A stretch of DNA of 60,827 nt, the filler included, from Basidioascus undulatus (lineage: Eukaryota): the NCBI GenBank assembly GCA_000826855.1. It is 7 parts of 7 records of this genome, joined end to end, with 100 filler letters (N's around TTAATTAATTAA, not from the genome) between each part and the next. Parts side by side here need not be neighbours in the genome. Positions count along the whole stretch, not along the records: positions 11,513 to 37,886 come from JTLS01000190.1; 6 more parts are not named here. One strand, written 5' to 3'. A model generated the notes under the pieces. The model was given only the letters and a program-made list of their open reading frames with translations. It was not told where the DNA came from and did not search any database. Below, piece after piece: positions 11,513-29,550 of this stretch. Position 1 is the stretch's first letter. Every line of letters begins with the position of its first letter. The translations under genes were made by a program, and so were the position numbers.

Positions 11513-12290
11513 CAGGAAGTGCTGATTTGGCGGAGGGGAGGGAAGGAGGATGCATGCTTGGATAGCCATATGCTGGATGGGAATACTGTGAGGGAGTGAC
11601 TGAGATCAAAGTCTGCGTACGCGCCCTGCTTCGCTTTAGCTGGGTTGGCGGGGAAGACCCTCTCCCCCGAAAGTACGGCCTTTGTCTCCTGGTGGTGGTA
11701 AGGCACTGCGCGTGCTCGCGCGACGAAATTACACTAGCCCGGTATGTAGGTAGGGAACAGCCACGCACGCCGTTCATGCCTTCGCCTTACAGCCCTTCGC
11801 AGTTTCGCTCTGCAGCTCGGTCGGGTTTCTTTCCTTTACCCCAACCCAACTCAGCCCGGTGCGTGCTCAGCACCCAACAGACACACCATTCGGCAAGGGC
11901 GCAGGCGCATGCGTCCCGTCCGTCATTCAACGTCTTCGCCCGCATACTTGCCGCACTCTTCCGACGGGCGGGGGTATGTTGTCTGCCGTATCGCACCTGG
12001 CTCCTCAGCCTCAAGTCTTCAGTCCTTGGAAGATCTGCTTCGCGAAGCACGGGTGAAGCAAGGGCTGGCCCTGCCTGTATGGTCCGAGGAGGACGCCAGA
12101 TGTCTGGAACAGGAGAAAGAAGAGGTCGTAGCAAGCAGCAGACCGTGGTCGGCAGGCAGGATGTGCTCGAGGTTCAGGTCACGTCCTGACCATGCTGCAC
12201 GAGTAACAAACTTGGTGAAGAAAGTAAATGCTATGCAATGCAAGCCAATCCGTTCCGATACCGTCCACCTCAACTCCACCCCCTCAGCCC

Positions 12291-14729
12291 CTACTCTTCA
12301 TCCACGTCCCTCCAAACGCCCCTACACATCTCATGCGCGCTCCCCACCCTCCAGTCATCTCCCTCCCACTCTTCCATCCCCGCCCGCTCCTTCCTTCCCT
12401 CATCCTCGCTCTCACTCTCGCTCCCACTCCCGCTGTCCTCCGCGCGCTCCTTCCCCTTGCCCAACCGGACATTCCCCGGCTTCGGCGGCGCCTCGCAGTA
12501 CGCCTTGGTGTCGAACACGGGCGGGCGGTCCGAGAGGTCCGTCGAGCCCGCGAGGAGCGCGCGGACTTCGTCGGGCTCGGGGCAGGCGCGGAGATGTGGG
12601 AACAGCGGGGGGAAGGAGGGCGGGAGGGTGGAGGCGAAGGGGAGGGGCGGCGGCTCGGAAGAGGATGCGGAGTGGAAGACGAGGAGCTCGATATGCTTGG
12701 GCTTTTGGCGCGTGGTGGAGGACGTGGAGGAGGAGGAGGCAGAGGAGCGGGACGCAGCGCGCAGGTAGGCCTTGTCCTTCTTTGCCTTCGCCGCGCGACC
12801 GCTCGCAGCAGCGGACGAAGACGCCGACGACCCCCTCGCTGTAGTGTTGGCCCCCTCCTTCTCCTTCACCCTCTCCTCCATCTCCCGCTTGCTCCCCGCC
12901 CTCTCCCACTTTTTCCAAGCCTCCTCCAGCGCGCCCACGACACGCTCACAGCCCTCCCTCCACCCGCGCTCAAACTCCTCCGCCCACTCGCGGCGCCTGC
13001 GCGCTCTCACGCGGTCCTCCACGCCGAGCGACAGCGCGCGCAGCGCCGGCGGGGAGGGGAGGACGAGGTACTGGACTGGGGCGTTGGCGAGGTGCGCGCG
13101 CGCGGCGGGGGACAGGCCCGAGGAGGCGGAGGTCGACGACTGGCCAGGCGCGTCGTCCCGGATCGAGAAGGACGCTTGGAACCCGCGCCGGCCTTGACGA
13201 CGCCGCGCGGACGGCAGGGCGGGCAGCGGAAGCTCCTCGGCGGGAGGCAGGATCGGTCCGCCCGGGTGAGTGGTGTGTACTGCGGGCGGCGGGGCAGCCA
13301 GCGCACGCTGCTCCGCGACCCACTCGTTCACAGCCGTCTCCGCCGCCTTGGCTCTTACGAGCCCCGCGGTGGCGCACATCCGCCCAAGGAGGCGTGCGCC
13401 GGCGCGTCCACGGTCGCGCGCGACGGTCCCGTACCCCTCCAGGCCGAAGAGGTTCGTGTGGTCCAGTACAAGGTGGGTGAGGCGCGGGTGCCGCCGCAGA
13501 AGCGGGGCGAGGTTCGCATCCTGCCCTTGCACGCGGACGAAGGAGGTCGAGATGTCGAGGGTTTCCAGGTTGGGGAGCGCGTTGGGGACGGAGAGGGGCG
13601 TGGCGACGTCGCGGAAGGGGACGCGCAGGCGGAGGTGCTTGACGTGCGAGGCCAGGGGGGAAGTCGCGAAAAGGGAGAGGCAGTGGGTGAGGTTGAAAAA
13701 GACCTGGAGTGGCGGTTCGGGATCAGGTTCAGCTGTACCGTCCGATGGAGGAGAGATGGAGTAAAACAGGGACGCACAATCGGATTTGCGAAAGTCTTGG
13801 GCAGCGCGCTCGACATCCGGTTGCTCATCCACGGCATGGGCCCGCCGGCGCCCGAGTACGTGGACAGGTGGGTCGAGTGGTCGAGCAGCTCCTCAGCGTC
13901 TTCCTCCTCGCCAGCCTTCATCTCGAACGCAGGTGCGACGCCGTCCTCGTCGCTCTGCAGCTGCAGCGGCGGGACGTCCTGGATGATGCTGATCCGGTCC
14001 AAAGCCGAATTGGACAGCCAGGTCGTCGCGAGGCGCTCGAGCGCAGAGTCGAAATACGCCCCTGCGGAGGAAGGGAGTCAGCCGGGGAAGACGATGTACG
14101 CAGCCTGGGTGTCAAATGAGCAACAGGTTGAAACTTACCTTTGAGGAACTGATAGTATGACCGACGCTTGAGATAGGGGTAGAAGCGGAGGGAGAGCGTG
14201 TGCAGAGAGAGGAGCGGGCGGTGGAATGCGTCGAAGAGGTGCTCCGGCGCGAAGGTCGGGCCGACGTTAAGGAGGAGGAAGCGAATGTGAGGGATGTGGG
14301 GGAGGAGGCTGCGCAGTCACGCGTCTGTCAATCTGATCAAAGCGCAAGGTGAGTGAGGGATACGCACTTGATCACAAAGCTGGGATCGCCACTCCAGCTC
14401 GCAGCGCGAAAGCTCTCCACCACGCCCTCTCCGCCAACCCAATCAGCCCATTCGCGCTCCGCCTCGCCCACCGTGCCGGCCTTCGCGCGAACAAGTCGCA
14501 TGAGGAGCGCCTTGGCCTGCGCCGGCTGCCGGAGATGGAGGTGCGAGACCAGGTGGCGCGGGGAGATGGGCGCGCCCGGCGGAAGGGCGAGAATGAGCGC
14601 GTAGGTCGTCCGCTGCAGATTGGGGTCTGGTACGAAGGAAAGGATCTGGGACCATATTTCTGAGGGGAGGAGCGTGTATGCTGCTGGTGGGCCCGGCGCG
14701 GGTGAGGGGGCGGCCGGGTGGGCAGCCAT
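12291..14729 (-). CDS. F-box-like protein with degenerate LRR-like repeats and a low-complexity C-terminus
   Basis: N-terminal LLPSEIWSQILSFV F-box-like motif; LPNLETLDIS and LTHLVLDHTNL LRR-like strands; long terminal exon ending at 12291. Confidence 0.65.
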
Positions 14730-21501: not shown

Positions 21502-22928
21502 CTATGCGCGCGCTGCGCGCTCAGAAGCAATGAATTCGCGCATATACTTCGCGAGGGTCTCCGCTTGGGGAACGGAGATGCCGTTGTAGAGGGAAGCGCG
21601 GATGCCTGTGAGAAGACACAACGAAAATAGACATCAGCTGTGTTGCTAGGGAATGCGTAAGGAAAAAGGAGACGGACCGCCGACAGAGCTATGTGGGGGA
21701 GCAAAAACGGTTAGGAAAAGGAAGACCAGGGAGAGCGGGTTCTGAAAGAGCGCACCGGTGGCCCTTGAGCGCCTTGAGTCCCCGCGTCTCGGCGCCCTCC
21801 AAGAAGCGCTTCTCCGCGCCGTCGCCCTTGATGATCCAGACGACGTTCATCCTGCTCCTCGCGTCCTTCTGCACCTTGCCCTCGAACACGCCCTCGCGCT
21901 CGCCCTCCTCCACCGCCTCGTACACGATCCTGCTCTTCTCCTTCGCGGCGCGCTCTGCCTCCGCCACGCCGCCGCGGCGCTCCAGCTCCTCAAACACGAG
22001 CCCGCTGACGTAGATGGCAAACATCGGTGGGGTGTTGTACATGCTCTCGTTGTCCGCGTGGCGCTTGTAGTCCGCCATGTGCGGGACGACGGGGATCCCG
22101 CCGAGCGCGAACGCGTCGTCCGTCGAGACGAGCAGGTCCTTCCGCGCGATGACGAGCGTGAGGCCCGCGATGCCGGCGTTCTTCTGCGCGCCGGCGACGA
22201 TGAGCGCGTGGCGCGAGACGTCGATCGGGCGCGAAAGGACGTTCGAGGACACGTCCGCGACGAGGTTCTTGGAGTTTGCGGGGAGCGCGGCGTACGGGAA
22301 GGACGGCTTGAACTCGACGCCGTTGACGGTCTCGTTGTCGCAGTAGTACACGAATGCGGCGTCGTCCGTGAGCTTCCACTCGCTCGTAGGCGGGATCGCG
22401 CCGAACGTCTTGCCGTCTGCGCTGGCGGCGCGCGCGTCCACGGCGACGTTCACCTTGGCGATCGAGCCAGCCGTCAGGCGCTTCGCCTCCGATGCGGCCT
22501 TGGCGGACCAGGAGCCGGTGACGACGTAGTCGAGCGTGGCGGACTGGGCGGTCGGGTTCGCGAGGCGCCAGGCGGAGAGGACATTCAGCAAGACGGCGGA
22601 GAACTGGCCCATGCCGCCGCCCTGCATGAGGAGGACCTCGTGCGTGTCCGGGATGGACAGCAGCCGGCGGTAGGCATCGACAACCTTTGAAGCGGAACGA
22701 AAAGGATCAGCATGAACATGGGAGACGGCAATGGCGGAGTTCGAGTTGGGGCAGAGACGCACGTTCTTGGTGAGCTGAATGAACGCAGGGGAACGGTGCG
22801 AGAGTTCAGCGAGGCCGATACCTGTGTTGTTGTAGTTGAGCAGGCCCGCAGCAGCGGTTTCCAGCACGGAGGTGGGCAGGGTGGAGGGGCCCGCGGCGAA
22901 GTTGATCACGTCCTGGCGGTCGGGCATC
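21502..22928 (-). CDS. SER1: Phosphoserine aminotransferase
   Basis: VINFAAGPS, ELSHRS, QGGGMGQF, VTGSWS, CDNETVNGVEF, GAQKNAG (PLP lysine), YNTPP, GHRSVGGIRASLYN. Includes an 11-nt micro-exon at 21678-21688. Confidence 0.97.
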
Positions 22929-24218
22929 GTGGAGGGGAGACGGCGGGGAAAATGTAGGGGCTGTTGATAGAGGAAGGGAAAAGGTGAGAATTGAGGGGCC
23001 ATGATAGAGTATGAGGTATGATGTTGTGGGATTGTTGAGCAAATGGGAGATAGGAATCGGAAGTTGAGCGAGGAGAGATGGGAGGGCAGAGCGTTGCCCC
23101 CACTCGCAATTTATGCTGCACGATCGACTCGTACGACTTCTCTCCGAGGCGCTCATATCCACAGATGAATCGGGTACGCACGTGAAAGGGACGAAAAGGA
23201 AAAGAGCGTGTATCCGGGAGACGGTTACAGAGGAACGCCCGCAGGAGGAGGAAGGCTGTGAAGCGAGAAGACCGCCGCCAGGATCGAGTCAGTCCTCCTC
23301 GCTGGCCACCGCATTGCCCAAGAATGGCGTGATTGCCTAGAGGAGTTGTGCGCATGCAATCAAAATAATGACTCACCGCAGAAGATCTGATCGCAAGCGT
23401 ACGAATCGGAAGGAGTTCCAAGAGGAGGAAGGCCAAGCGGCGCTGACTCCCACGGTCTTCTCGCGATGGCGGAATCCCCAGATTCTGGCCGGGTTCGTCC
23501 GCGGGCGGATATCGGCGTCCGCCGTCCGGGCCTCCATCCGGAGTGATCTCCTGGCTTGCACCCGACCCTCATCCTCGCATTCCGCTCACTCTTTCTGCAC
23601 TGACAATCGTTCATCTCCTCATATTTTCTCATTCGAAAGTCCATCGTTCACTCTAGAGCAGGTCGCTCTCCGTTTCGATCGAGTCTATTCGTTCGTTCCG
23701 TACTCCCCGGGGCCCGAAGCTAGTCGCGAGGTGGGTCAGCACTCGCTGTCGTAGGCAAGGGGTACAGGGGAGAGCCAGGAGGAAGAGAAGGCGGGAGATT
23801 GTAAGGTGGACACCTGCGCCCAGGAGCAACCGGTTGCAGTGGCAGGGTGGCTTCCTGGTCCTCGGCAGACACCCACGCCGGGGCGAGAGCTGGTGGACGC
23901 AGACCTTGCTGCGGTTGCGCGGCTTTTCCACGCAGAGCGCGCCATGCTGGACAGCAGAGCGATGTTATCCCGGACATACCTACACCGTATAATTCAGCGG
24001 TTCGGGACCTCCCATGGCGAGAAGTAGTTGGCTCGTGGTGATGAGGCTCTCCAGAGTGATCGCGTTGTTCACGCACCGCAGTCATGCCCTGGCCCACCAC
24101 GACTTGTCGGAAGGACGCTTTCTGACCAATGAATACTTCGCTGAACAGCAGCGGATCACCTCGCAGCTATCCCTACCGCTTTGCCCCTCTCCATCACCGG
24201 CCGCCCCTCCGCGACACC

Positions 24219-26206
24219 ATGATCTCCGCTGTCTTCTGCTTCAACCAAAAGGGCGAGGTCCTCATCTCGCGATTATTCCGCCCAGACGTGAAGTGCGTTA
24301 CCTCCTCTTGCCCCTCTCCCGGCGTCCACCACGTATTGACCCATTCCCCTTCTCCTTCAGGCGCTCCATCTCCGACGTCTTCCGCATCCAAGTCGTCTCG
24401 AACCCCGACGTCCGCTCGCCAATCATCACCCTCGGCTCGACGTCCTTCTTCCACGTGCGGCATAACAACATCTACGTCGTGGCTGTAACGAAGTCCGTCT
24501 TCCCACCCCATCCTCGCTTCCGCTTGGTGGCCTGGAGCACTGACAGCGCGCAAACGCAGGTGCAATGCCTCCGCTGCGCTCGTCTTCGAGTTCATCTACC
24601 GCGTGATCACCATCGGCCGCGCGTACTTTGGGAAGTTCGACGAGGAGGCGGTCAAAAACAACTTTGCGCTCATCTATGAGCTGCTGGATGGTGCGTTTCG
24701 AAGCCCCGCGCACGCGTCAGACCTCATTCCCAGGATGCAGGAAGGCTAAACTGGGGGACTCCTGTGAAAACAGAGATCCTCGACTTCGGGTACCCTCAAA
24801 ACTCCGAGATCGACGCACTTAAGATGTACATCACGACCGAGGGTGTGCGATCCGAAGCGTCGATGGTGCGTCCCGCAACATTTTCTCAGGTTATGTCCAA
24901 GTGACCTGGAAGGCCGACGCCTCCAACGCGACAGTTGGAAGACTCGAGCAAGATCACGATCCAAGCGACGGGCGCGACGTCGTGGCGGCGGAGCGACGTC
25001 AAGTACCGCAAGAACGAGGCGTTCGTGGATGTCATCGAGAGTGTCAACCTGCTCATGTCCGCGAAGGGTGCGTCTGGTTGTCTTCGATGAGCATAAGCAA
25101 GAGTTAATGTGGGTCTGACTTGATGGATGGACCGGGACACGCAGGCAACGTCCTCCGTGCCGACGTCGACGGGCAGATCCTCATGCGTGCATACCTGTCC
25201 GGCACGCCCGAGTGCAAGTTTGGGCTTAACGACAAGCTTGTGTTGGAGAAAAGGTGCGTACAGCCCACATCAGACTCGCAGCGGCATGCGGACGTATGGT
25301 TTCTCGGCGTACACGCAACTGATGCTGAGTGCGTTCATGTCTTAGCAGCGACCGCTCAAGATCGGTTGATGACGCGGTCGAGCTCGACGACTGCCAGTTC
25401 CACCAATGTGTACGGCTCGGCAAGTTCGACTCGGATCGGACGATCAGCTTCATTCCTCCCGATGGCGAGTTCGAGCTGATGCGGTCCGTGCCTCTTTCCT
25501 CGACCCTCTTTCAATTCCACTCCCGTCCTCCCTCACCCCTCATTCCATGAGTCCGCACTCACCCAACTTGTTCTTGCTGTTGCGGTGGCATTAGGTACCG
25601 CTCCACGACGAACGTGAACCTCCCGTTCCGGGTCCAGCCGATCGTCAACGAAGTCGGCAAGTCGCGCGTGGAGTACACCGTCCACGTCAAGGCCAACTTT
25701 GACCCCAAGCTAAACGCCAACTCTGTCGTACTCCGCATCCCGACGCCGCTCAACACGACCGGCGTTAAGTGCACCGTCACAATGGGCAAGGCGAAATACG
25801 TGCCGGCGGAGAACGAGATCGTTTGGAAGTGCGTGTTTTTTCTCCCGCTCTTTCTGCTGGTTTACCTCTGGATACTGACGGCGAGGAATGGGAACGCTGC
25901 AGGATCCCGAGAATGCAGGGCATGGCCGAAGCAACGCTGCAAGCGGACGCGGACCTGACGGCGACGACGCACCGCCAAGCATGGTCCCGCCCGCCGATCA
26001 ATGTCGACTTCCAGGTCCTCATGTTCACTGCGTCGGGGCTGCTCGTGCGCTTCCTCAAGGTCTTTGAGAAGAGCAACTACCAGGTGCGTTGCGCGAGCGC
26101 TCTGCTTCCGGAGGACAGTCGTGTTAATGAAGGCGGGCGGGAGCAGAGCGTCAAGTGGGTACGGTACTTGACAAAGTCCACGGGGAGCTATCAGATTCGG
26201 TTCTAG
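24219..26206 (+). CDS. APM4: AP-2 adaptor complex medium (mu2) subunit
   Basis: [92 protein letters not shown]. Confidence 0.96.
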
Positions 26207-26646: not shown

Positions 26647-27445
26647 AAAACTTGTGCATTGGTGACCCAACCACTTCAAATTGCTGCAACTATGGACGGG
26701 CTGTCAACTAGGATGTGATGGATTGAGTTGAAGGAAGATGCTTGCTCAGCGGAGTCTTCTACTTGTGCACACCGCAAGCAGACTGATGATTTGAGGGGCA
26801 TTATTCCTGAGCTTAGGTTGCATGTTTCATCTTATCGTCGACCTCTTATATTAACCAGAACGAACGCAATAGCACAGAAGAGCGAGGACAGGAAGATGCA
26901 TTGTGGTAACTGCGGGACCGGAGACAATGATTTATGGCCCGAGCGTCATGCAACATGGTAGGACCATCCAATCTTAACTGTACAGACAAAATCGACCAAA
27001 AAATAAATTAAATGTATCACGTGCTTGCGCTGGTAGGCCAAGGCATCGACGGCTGGTTCTTGTTTGCAGCGGCTTGCGTAGTTACTTGAGATCTCTTCTC
27101 GCTTCTGCGGCAGCGTTATAGTCATTACAAAGTTGATCCGTTAGGACTGGTGTATATTTGAGCAACCCTAAGATTCTGCATTACTGCACTCGAGGAATCA
27201 TCCCAGACAGGCAGGCAACGACCAATGCCTTTTACGTTCAAGCGACAACGCCTAGAATCGCAAGCAGGCAACACTTGGGCAGAAGTGACCCATTGCACTC
27301 CTAGTCACCACAATCATGCATGGGCTATCAACCAGGATTGCTGGTTCTGAAATGAGCTGAAAGAAGACGCTGCCTTTGCCCGAGACGGACTGACACTTTG
27401 TACACCTCGCCTGCAAGCTGGAGGTCTGAGGGGCATTATTGCTGT
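26647..27445 (+). repeat. Diverged direct repeat pair (~26647-26810 and ~27270-27445), decayed coding-like
   Basis: Colinear blocks GTGACCCA, GGGCT(G/A)TCAAC(T/C)AGGAT, TGAG(T/C)TGAA(G/A)GAAGA(T/C)GCT and TGAGGGGCATTATT. Both copies read ELKEDA...LRGII with nearby stops. Confidence 0.65.
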
Positions 27446-27688
27446 GATTTAATGATATGATATAGTTCTTGTTCATTTGCACATTCCGGGCGAGCGCAGT
27501 GAGATTCAGTGAGAAGGGGCACGGAGAGGAAGACGCTGTGCAATTCAACCGTGCAACGCACAGCGGAAATGTGCAGATGTTGTCTAACGGTCTGAGCATC
27601 TGCCATCGTGTAATAGTCGTGTACTATGTTTCCAGATTAGTGCTACAGTCAAAACAGTGAAAGCAGCCCCCAAATGAGATTAACAAGC

Positions 27689-27693
27689 AAAAA
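27689..27693 (-). terminator. RNA polymerase III terminator (T5) of the permuted tRNA gene
   Basis: TTTTT on the minus strand, 5 nt after position 37 of the downstream 5' half. Confidence 0.75.
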
Positions 27694-27698
27694 GGTAG

Positions 27699-27782
27699 TA
27701 CGAGTGGCGCGCTCTACCACTGAGCTAAACGGGCATTATTCCTATATGCCCATTGGCCGGATTGAACGACCGACCTCACCAT
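27699..27782 (-). tRNA. Circularly permuted tRNA-Thr(CGU): 3' half (nt 38-73) at 27782-27747, 12-nt spacer at 27746-27735, 5' half (nt 1-37) at 27734-27699
   Basis: Minus strand reads ATGGTGAGGTCGGTCGTTCAATCCGGCCAATGGGCA-tataggaataat-GCCCGTTTAGCTCAGTGGTAGAGCGCGCCACTCGTA. Reordered it forms a complete 72-nt cloverleaf: acceptor GCCCGTT/AATGGGC, D GCTC/GAGC, anticodon CGCCA/TGGTG with loop CT-CGT-AA, T GGTCG/CGGCC. Confidence 0.9.
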
Positions 27783-28509
27783 TTCAATACCATTAGGGCA
27801 TCAAATCACTACGATTTATGTAGGCTAGAATCAAATTGTTCCAATATCCAATAACCGACTCTGCTTAAAGCACCTGGCCGGCTATAGAAGGTACCATGAG
27901 TGGAGGGTTCAGAGATTATGTGGCAGTTTGATTCGAAACAGCCGTAGCGCAAAGGAAGAAGGTGTGGGTGCTTGGGCGTAGGCTGCAAGCTGCACCGCAG
28001 GAGCCTCGCTGGGCTGTCCAGATGCCTGACAAGCAGGTAGCGAACAACTCTATCAAGGGAGAAAGGAGAAGGGGACAAATGTGGGTAAAATCGTGGTAGA
28101 TACACCAGCCCTGAAACCAGAACAGTGGCTGACACAACTGACAGCGGGAGTAGGTGAAGTAGCAGTGCATAAAATGTGGAACAAAATTCGGGAATGGACT
28201 GCATGAAATGAGGCAGCTTGTCAGAGATTAGACTGCATGGCATGGGTAGAAGAAGAAAAAAAGAGAAGAAGAGGTCGTGAGGTTGAGAGAAGGCAGCCTT
28301 GGTGGATGGAACCACGCAGAGAGGATAGCAAGTGGAGTACACTGATTGTGCACACCACTGAGGGGGGGGCGAAAACATGAGGAGAAATATTCATAGGACT
28401 GAAAGCTTAGATTGAGACGGCACAGCAATGCTCAGTAATCCAGGAAGATGATTGGGGTCTTTGCGCAGATAGGTGAAACCGAAAGGCGTCTGCACCAGCT
28501 TTTACTGAC

Positions 28510-29550
28510 TCAGTTATCTTCTTCAAGCCCGATACGACCCGGATCCCACTGCGTGGTCTCACAAAAGCCATCTCAGACATCTCGCCGACGCGACCGTCTT
28601 CCTCATCTGCACCGTATTCAAACAGCGCCTCGTCGAGCACGGCGCGGACCCGGACGTCGCGACATTGGCCACGGATGCTCTTCGGGCAGCTCGAAATTCC
28701 GTGAGGACCGTGATGCTCGCGCCCGCGTACACCGCCAGCATCACGTTCTCGGGATACGCGACCCGCGTCGATCTCAGCTTTGCCTGCTTATTCCAGCTCA
28801 AGCTCGCCACCGTCTACCCCGACAAGGCTGACGTATACGGCATCCTGAAGGACGTGGATCAGATCGCCAACATTCTCTTGCACTGCGCGGGCTCGCAGAC
28901 ATTTTCGGCGACGTTGAGGTGCGCTCAGTTCCATATTACCTTCTCCCACTTCACACGCGGTCGCACTTTCCAAACGCCCTTATCATTGACAGACTCGCGC
29001 GCGACCACTCCCTCAAGCGCATTTCCAGCACGGTCGGTTCGACTAGCCGCACGAATGTCCCGGCGCCGATGCTGGTGCCCCACCTACTCTCGCTCCACGC
29101 ACACGATGCGGGAAACGCGCTGCTCCCCGGCGAGATTGGCTTCGACTGGCCTCCGCTTCTGCAGGCCGTTCCTGACTGGTTCGAGCTTATGACCCTTGGA
29201 TGGGCAGGGGCTCGTGTCTGCCGGATGCGGAGGTGTTCCAGCAGGTCAGCCGCTCCGCTCCGTTGTGCGACGTTTCGGTATCCATGTAGCATTTGCGTGT
29301 CATGAACCCTGGGCTGCGTTTGCCTCCGACTGAAGTTCGAGCGCGGCCTACAAGAAGCTATGTCTGTACTTGTAAGCAGTGAAGAGCAAGGGATACCCTC
29401 GCAGCGTAGTCGTAACGACAAGGGATGCTTGTGGAGCTGGTTCTGGAGAATGGCTGTGTGCAAAATGGTAACGTGAGTGCCCCCGAACCGTAGCTGGCCC
29501 ATCGAGGAGCGAAAATTGCATACTGAGATGGATATCCCTATCGTTTGAGC
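28510..29550 (+). CDS. Hypothetical spliced protein or relic
   Basis: Coding-like frame YLLQARYDPDP...LATVYPDKADVYGILKDVDQIANILL, a GTGCGC..AG intron at ~28919-28991, then LARDHSLKRISST...; no family recognised. Confidence 0.3.

Follow-up and report, generated by a model that had tools for sequence, protein, structure and literature searches.

We have identified, within a window of 60,827 nucleotides (the whole stretch of DNA that was analysed), a locus that is probably a working type II (37/38) circularly permuted nuclear gene for tRNA-Thr(CGU) and one of a small permuted family. Judged from sequence, we give this reading a probability of roughly 0.7. The tRNA's 3' half stands in front of its 5' half, and the two halves, once exchanged, make a complete cloverleaf whose anticodon loop is restored exactly across the junction. 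Evidence from the flanking DNA in two sequencing runs, from paralogous loci in the same genome and from the predicted fold of the precursor is laid out below, together with the alternatives that have to be weighed against it.

Anatomy of the permuted locus

The initial annotation had read the order of the locus on the minus strand as 3' half, 12-nt spacer, 5' half, CTACC and TTTTT, and this order is exact in the sequence. Both halves and the spacer were located by sequence reading and by ARAGORN. The 3' half (nt 38-73, positions 27747..27782, minus strand) contains the 3' strand of the anticodon stem, the variable loop AGGTC, the T arm, the 3' strand of the acceptor stem and the discriminator A73. 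It is followed by the spacer TATAGGAATAAT (27735..27746, minus strand), which closes the acceptor stem and which, read from 27746 to 27735, contains neither a T-run nor CCA. The gene does not encode CCA: the letters after A73 are TAT. The 5' half (nt 1-37, 27699..27734, minus strand) contains the 5' strand of the acceptor stem, the D arm, the 5' strand of the anticodon stem and the residues C32, U33, C34, G35, U36 and A37.

Short sequences border the two halves. Upstream of nt 38 is the leader GGTATTGAA (27783..27791, minus strand), as delimited by the precursor folds. Downstream of nt 37 is the trailer CTACC (27694..27698, minus strand), which according to the sequence and the folds pairs with the leader and is predicted to be removed at the 37/38 junction. 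In the folds, GGTA of the leader (27791-27788) can base-pair with TACC of the trailer, and the G at leader position -3 (27785) can pair with C32, so that A-2, A-1 and A38 form a 3-nt bulge at the 3' cut site.

Sequence reading further shows a T5 run (27689..27693, minus strand) that begins 5 nt past nt 37 and is a candidate RNA polymerase III terminator. By budding-yeast standards, T5 is a short terminator. With CATAAAT upstream, T5 downstream and no terminator in the spacer, the locus reads as one putative transcription unit. The TATA-like CATAAAT (27814..27820, minus strand) sits 32-38 nt upstream of nt 38 and is a candidate upstream Pol III promoter element, a function assigned by analogy with algal permuted tRNA genes (PMC3978253, cited here and below from excerpts). 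A permuted gene has its B box upstream of its A box, an arrangement thought to be unsuitable for TFIIIC (PMC3978253). Transcription would thus have to rely on an upstream element, for which CATAAAT is the candidate; the inverted boxes, like the shortness of T5, count against the preferred reading. The locus lies in an intergenic stretch of lower G+C content (0.48).

A split tRNA that is joined by trans-splicing, as in Nanoarchaeota and Crenarchaeota, was considered and rejected: the two halves share a strand, and the 12 nt that separate them contain no terminator.

The exchanged halves form a complete tRNA-Thr

ARAGORN calls no tRNA in the native window, and across its 60.8 kb every Rfam family stays below its gathering score. 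When the halves were reordered by script, ARAGORN returned a 72-nt tRNA-Thr(cgt), and the native 84 nt also gave tRNA-Thr(cgt) when ARAGORN was run in circular mode. All stem positions of the reordered tRNA are paired, and the acceptor stem, the anticodon stem and the T stem have one G-U pair apiece. The conserved positions are complete, namely U8, A14, G15 with C48, G18G19, U33, T54-T55-C56, A58 and A73, and the anticodon loop restored over the junction is C-U-C-G-U-A-A. The claims that swapping the halves gives a flawless cloverleaf, that the break lies at 37/38 (the 5' half ends at nt 37 and the 3' half starts at nt 38) and that standard scanners would miss the gene are all upheld by these results. 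So is the claim that no second copy of either half lies nearby: none was found in the whole window, where the closest other matches differ at 14 and 15 of 36 positions. A plain ARAGORN scan with introns allowed returned one implausible His call, with a 408-nt intron, at 13908-14403.

The specificity of the call was assessed by a tile-duplication scan, in which ARAGORN was applied, with introns allowed, to ~2022 tiles of the window (180 nt long, at steps of 30 nt), each of them duplicated. Four junction-spanning calls were obtained in the window, all from overlapping tiles at the tRNA-Thr locus; one was Thr(cgt) and three were Ser(tga) with another intron placement. Chance origin of the permuted cloverleaf is in practice excluded. 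The combination of duplication and introns makes ARAGORN unspecific beside ordinary tRNA genes, as it made junction calls at 48 of the 103 metagenome loci whose acceptor strands are not complementary. Since the window lacks a credible ordinary tRNA, the scan is informative here.

A tRNA-like body of this kind could also belong to a non-coding RNA, a Y-RNA-like or YrlA-like mimic with a capped acceptor that is never made into a decoding tRNA. YrlA (RF02553) is the best Rfam match to the locus at a relaxed threshold (27691-27794), a match that reflects nothing but the shared order T arm, capped acceptor, D arm; moreover, metagenome loci with 6-nt-capped acceptor modules of a similar kind exist. 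The match to YrlA, however, scores 19.4 bits against a gathering score of 69 (E 0.17), and membership of that family was rejected. We consider a mimic very unlikely, given that the ends of the unit hold exactly the two pieces of a 7-nt anticodon loop of tRNA-Thr, divided at 37/38, together with a full 5-bp anticodon stem and A73, and that the paralogs described below likewise end at nt 37.

A search of metagenome contigs with a T-loop...D-arm pattern gave at least 120 matches, and among the 120 listed none belongs to this fungal Thr family. In 17 of those listed, the acceptor strands are complementary at 6/7 or more positions; inspection by eye showed permuted tRNAs of algal type, tRNA-like modules with a cap, or one bacterial tRNA in tandem copies. 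A family-specific pattern gave 0 matches in prokaryote genome contigs and 0 in viral contigs, which is expected for such collections.

The halves and their flanks in two sequencing runs

Two DNA runs of ~35 Mb each, X1 (2014) and X2 (2025), were compared with the window as contigs; X1 may be the source of the window. Each of them contains 0.97 of the words sampled from 26700-28700. The left flank is covered up to 27723, with 0 differences, by a single-copy contig of 16,191 nt in X1 and of 16,486 nt in X2. The right flank is likewise covered from 27753 onwards, again with 0 differences, by a single-copy contig of 10,075 nt in X1 and of 18,061 nt in X2. In both runs, unique non-tRNA DNA directly adjoins nt 37 and nt 38, and the contigs show that the DNA beyond these two nucleotides is single-copy for more than 10 kb. 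A third run from soil, X3, covers 27882-28209 and a short repeat-like piece near 28624-28661, both outside the tRNA.

Over the tRNA itself, the bin 27705-27771 has a depth of 287 in X1 and of 1203 in X2, compared with single-copy depths of ~16-18 and 40-46, respectively. Because the halves occur repeatedly in the genome, the single-copy contigs end within them. Within the locus's own spacer (27736-27746), depth comes solely from contigs of paralogs, two in X1 and one in X2. As rare variants are lost from contigs and repeats interrupt them, the missing spacer-spanning contig is no evidence against the join.

The initial annotation had named, as something that reads could reveal, a misassembly or a collapsed tandem array of ordinary intron-containing tRNA-Thr genes. 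Such an array is excluded by the contigs of X1 and X2, since unique flanks abut nt 37 and nt 38 in both runs; the spacer of the locus itself is seen in the window only. A single ordinary intron-containing gene was also rejected: the order of the halves is reversed, neither half has a partner in the window and the flanks are single-copy.

We have further considered an assembly artefact of another type, in which the window joins two genomic places via the repeated halves and its own join of 3' half, spacer and 5' half is unreal. The raised depth over the halves and the ends of the single-copy contigs at 27723 and 27753, in X1 as in X2, would agree with such a chimera. It is nevertheless highly improbable in view of two observations: each flank independently abuts a half that is broken at 37/38, in two runs, and the full permuted unit is found at other loci, inside or at the end of long contigs. 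Even a chimeric join would therefore link two genuine permuted genes and leave the biological conclusion unchanged.

A small family of permuted paralogs

That the gene is a singleton, as the initial annotation implied, is not borne out. The contigs of X1 and X2 show at least three paralogous permuted loci of the same genome. These loci share the order 3' half-spacer-5' half, and their spacers, of 10 or 12 nt, differ in sequence. Alignments to the paralogs end at the anticodon, which is not readable in them.

The first of these loci is on a contig of ~10.86 kb that is present in X1 and X2 at single-copy depth and aligns over 27699/27701-27783, with a spacer of 10 nt whose sequence has diverged. 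Two of its acceptor pairs are changed on both sides and are still paired: 4-69 is T-A instead of C-G, and 5-68 is C-G instead of G-T. At the second locus, the 5' half is internal to contigs of 12,390 nt (X1) and 28,968 nt (X2). In the loose end past nt 1, the T loop, the 3' strand of the acceptor stem and A73 precede a different 12-nt spacer; pair 6-67 is changed from T-A to C-G. The third locus is represented by an 88-nt unitig, at ~3x single-copy depth in X1, with a different 12-nt spacer. Here pair 6-67 is compensated, and pair 5-68 is changed to C-A, which does not pair. In X2, the high-depth 3' half has G at position 68. By a hand count on the contig difference table, pairing is kept in 4/5 of the acceptor pairs that are changed on both sides.

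The 88-nt unitig agrees with a 151-nt soil metagenome contig (X4) at all listed differences. The flanking DNA of X4 is ~97% identical, with 5 differences in the 151-nt contig, and the X4 soil population is to be taken as a close relative and not as evidence of deep conservation.

Further features of the locus recur at its paralogs. The loose ends past nt 37 at the other loci run through a short trailer into T9, T5 or T8 within ~20 nt, and no 3' half follows. G at position -3 is readable in the other visible leaders, in one case from the letters of a loose end and in the others via alignment to 27785. A joint leading directly from a 5' half to a 3' half is not reported in the contigs of X1 and X2; as contigs show presence and not absence, this would be weak evidence against conventional copies of this Thr sequence family. 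Taken together, the permuted Thr gene is apparently one member of a small multi-copy family of permuted genes. That it functions as a gene is supported indirectly, by paralogs with divergent spacers, by acceptor changes that are mostly compensated and by T-runs after nt 37.

A repeated family could also consist of relics. The locus might be a rearranged or a duplicated-then-deleted tRNA-Thr, or part of a dispersed pseudogene family, with conventional Thr genes doing the work. The C-A mismatch at 5-68 in one multi-copy paralog points in this direction, and so does the splice-site structure discussed below, in which a strict BHB cannot form. A relic would nonetheless have to be reconciled with a perfect cloverleaf with complete conserved nucleotides, with acceptor pairs that still pair in four of the five doubly changed cases among paralogs whose spacers are completely diverged, and with terminator T-runs that are kept after short trailers at several loci. 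In addition, the flanks contain no vestige of the missing outer halves, such as an origin by tandem duplication could have left, within 120 nt on each side, where 537 and 1962 of 2000 shuffles score at least equally. We regard a non-functional relic as unlikely.

Precursor fold and proposed processing

The predicted fold of the precursor gives a full tRNA body. For the 107 nt from 27796 to 27690, the minimum free energy (MFE) structure, at -34.9 kcal/mol, has the T arm, the acceptor stem capped by the spacer, the D arm and the anticodon stem, together with a leader-trailer helix. This helix has 8 bp and one bulged leader nucleotide, and is stacked under the anticodon stem. The z-score of the MFE fold is modest (-2.1), with 5/200 shuffles folding as well.

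A strict archaeal hBHBh' motif at the junction was rejected by hand and from the folds, in which nt 33-35 are unpaired with leader positions -4 to -6. In the MFE fold, a cut after A37 falls within a helix. An alternative fold has the C32:G-3 pair, the 3-nt bulge A-2 A-1 A38 and the helix GGUA:UACC; its energy is -30.0 kcal/mol versus -34.9, that is 4.9 kcal/mol worse. The A-I pair was reportedly defined by Baldi et al. in 1992 as nt 32 with intron position -3. For the eukaryal splicing endonuclease, excerpts of PMC4090602 describe a ruler from the tRNA body plus the A-I pair, a strict BHB being unnecessary.

From the arrangement of the DNA and the predicted fold, we infer the following pathway at the RNA level. 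Pol III would start downstream of the TATA-like element and stop in T5, giving an RNA of ~100 nt in the order leader, 3' half, 12-nt spacer, 5' half and trailer. This RNA is predicted to fold into a full tRNA body, in which the spacer caps the acceptor stem and the pairing of leader and trailer lengthens the anticodon stem. The Sen complex could then measure from the tRNA body, aided by C32:G(-3), and cut after A37 and before A38. Fungal tRNA ligase would join A37 to A38, so that the loop C-U-C-G-U-A-A is formed in a circular RNA. RNase P and tRNase Z would remove the spacer, and CCA would then be added. The reverse order is equally possible: end processing could come first and give a nicked intermediate of two pieces.

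The host and its demand for tRNA-Thr(CGU)

The protein-coding content of the window bears out the initial assignment of the host to basidiomycetes. A 437-aa ORF (21692-23002, minus strand) is a class-V aminotransferase according to Pfam. Among the best 120 of its 7760 matches, the top five have 57-60% identity, the only named one being from Wallemia ichthyophaga (60%), and the named matches at or below ~50% identity are almost all from Basidiomycota. An exon of an adaptor-complex mu-subunit lies at 25551-25958, while a 638-aa ORF at 12228-14144 has no homologues and no Pfam match. From the aminotransferase matches, the lineage appears to be nearer to Wallemia than to the classes that form mushrooms.

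That ACG codons are common in this genome, as proposed earlier, agrees with the two ORFs counted. In these, ACG is the commonest Thr codon, at 16/33 (10/20 and 6/13). A high demand for the Thr(CGU) isoacceptor would fit a multi-copy family.

A further step would be to suppose that, in this early-diverging basidiomycete from the Wallemia side, the permuted form is the only one in which tRNA-Thr(CGU) genes, and perhaps the whole Thr family, exist. We put this forward tentatively, as a possibility that we doubt more than we favour. If it were true, the most-used Thr codon would be decoded via a transcript that is cut, circularised and re-opened. It would also mean an independent origin of obligatory permuted tRNA genes in opisthokonts, with processing by Sen and Trl1 that does without a BHB motif.

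Significance of a permuted family in a fungus

If the fungal family is what it appears to be, it extends permuted tRNA genes to opisthokonts, and a permuted substrate that lacks a strict BHB would be within reach of a ruler-type endonuclease. Standard annotation would then miss part of the tRNA genes of at least some fungi, where isoacceptors that are apparently missing may be hidden in this way. As fungi are culturable and often genetically tractable, it could become possible to test in which order splicing, circularisation and end processing take place. The reason why permuted genes persist could likewise become testable in fungi.

Comparison with known permuted tRNA genes

Thirty-four permuted tRNA genes are tabulated in Table 1 of PMC3978253: 11 from Cyanidioschyzon merolae, 19 from four Mamiellophyceae, 2 from the Bigelowiella nucleomorph and 2 from Thermofilum pendens. 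According to the excerpts of that source, known permuted genes have a TATA-like element upstream, a T-stretch downstream, an intervening sequence of 1-74 nt and mostly the 37/38 junction. The 12-nt spacer described here is within that range, and in its sequence the locus shows the defining features of a type II permuted gene except for a clear BHB. In excerpts of PMC3978253 and of a 2026 review on photosynthetic eukaryotes (PMC13578239), which cites such genes from these algal, nucleomorph and archaeal lineages too, the reported hosts so far are a single red alga, a few green algae of the prasinophyte type, a nucleomorph of green-algal origin and a single crenarchaeon. Both sources discuss permuted genes there as peculiar to algal and archaeal lineages that are rich in BHB motifs. 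In excerpts of the tRNAscan-SE 2.0 paper (PMC8450103), permuted tRNAs are mentioned for archaea only. A search of the openly accessible full-text literature, to which subscription-only articles do not belong, found in the portions of text consulted no report of a nuclear permuted tRNA gene in a fungus, in line with the earlier statement that none had been described.

Among these genes, those of C. merolae are close in form to the present locus. Its Thr(CGT) and Thr(AGT) genes are both type II with the 37/38 junction, and have intervening sequences of 31 and 24 nt (PMC3978253 Table 1; Soma et al. 2007, from excerpts). The fungal locus resembles the type II genes of C. merolae in having the 3' half first, the 37/38 junction, no intron, no CCA, a TATA-like element upstream and a T-stretch downstream, and in encoding the same isoacceptor. 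It differs in its fungal (opisthokont) host, in its shorter spacer (12 versus 31 and 24 nt), in a relaxed eukaryote-type junction with no clear BHB and in being known here from DNA.

The permuted genes of Mamiellophyceae (Ostreococcus, Micromonas) and of the Bigelowiella natans nucleomorph are similar in that, in the excerpted sources, they are nuclear Pol III genes and almost all of type II (Maruyama et al. 2010; PMC3978253). Their intervening sequences are 5-64 nt long, and several are exactly 12 nt (PMC3978253 Table 1). They are, however, genes for Ser, Leu, Cys, iMet, Arg and Asn in green algae, whereas the present locus belongs to an apparent multi-copy family of a single isotype.

The iMet and Tyr genes of T. 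pendens share circular permutation with the fungal locus, and it is the tRNA splicing machinery that resolves theirs (Chan, Cozen and Lowe 2011, via excerpts of PMC3978253). In contrast to the fungal locus, their junction is 59/60, CCA is encoded, introns are present and the endonuclease is archaeal and BHB-dependent (PMC3978253). YrlA (RF02553) has the same linear order of T arm, capped acceptor stem and D arm, but it is bacterial or phage-borne and has no decoding anticodon loop, whereas the termini of the fungal unit rebuild a complete Thr anticodon arm. The mechanism proposed here is of a known kind. What is apparently new is the host lineage, the multi-copy family of a single isotype and the absence of a strict BHB.

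Genomic setting of the permuted tRNA-Thr gene

The permuted tRNA-Thr(CGU) gene lies near a phosphoserine-aminotransferase-like gene (21692-23002, minus strand), whose product is 60% identical to a Wallemia protein, and a gene for an adaptor-complex mu subunit (24000-26200, plus strand) that is split by short introns. Since these neighbouring genes are ordinary housekeeping genes, the permuted locus is nuclear.

In the contigs of two DNA runs of the same genome, X1 (2014) and X2 (2025), the segment 27683-27724 is matched by short unitigs with only two differences. It comprises the final 26 nt of the 5' half and a further 16 nt made up of the trailer, the terminator and DNA beyond it. The depths of these unitigs are 32.8 and 56.7 in X1 and 249 in X2, or 2-5 times the single-copy depth. 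The terminator region is therefore also common to several near-identical copies, which points to a recent duplication of the permuted unit as a whole.

Elsewhere in the window, a 638-aa ATG open reading frame (12228-14144, plus strand) overlaps long open reading frames at 12291-13832 (minus strand) and 11909-12844 (plus strand). A homologue was found in 0 of 8000 scored candidates, and no Pfam family matched; this region probably represents GC-rich DNA that either does not code for protein or is rich in introns, and not a single gene. When introns are allowed, ARAGORN calls a tRNA-His(gtg) at 13908-14403 (minus strand), interrupted by an intron of 408 nt; its default run on the window lacks this call, which is most likely spurious.

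Permuted and capped tRNA-like units in metagenomes

Among the listed metagenome matches to the T-loop to D-arm pattern, four loci on marine or freshwater contigs (L019, L114, L089 and L103) have the order 3' half, spacer, 5' half, with acceptor strands complementary at 7/7 positions. ARAGORN called tRNA-Cys(gca) for L019 and L114 when the piece was doubled, and placed an ordinary tRNA-Ala(tgc) at most about 140 nt from the pattern match in L019, L089 and L103. These units look like Cys(GCA) genes of the permuted type already described in Mamiellophyceae.

A further set (L028/L058, L052, L060/L077/L087, L074 and L073), some of them on contigs of 188-476 kb, has a T arm first, then an acceptor stem whose end is closed by a loop of 3-6 nt, and last a D arm. 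No credible anticodon arm was called in this set, and these capped modules resemble YrlA-type tRNA mimics.
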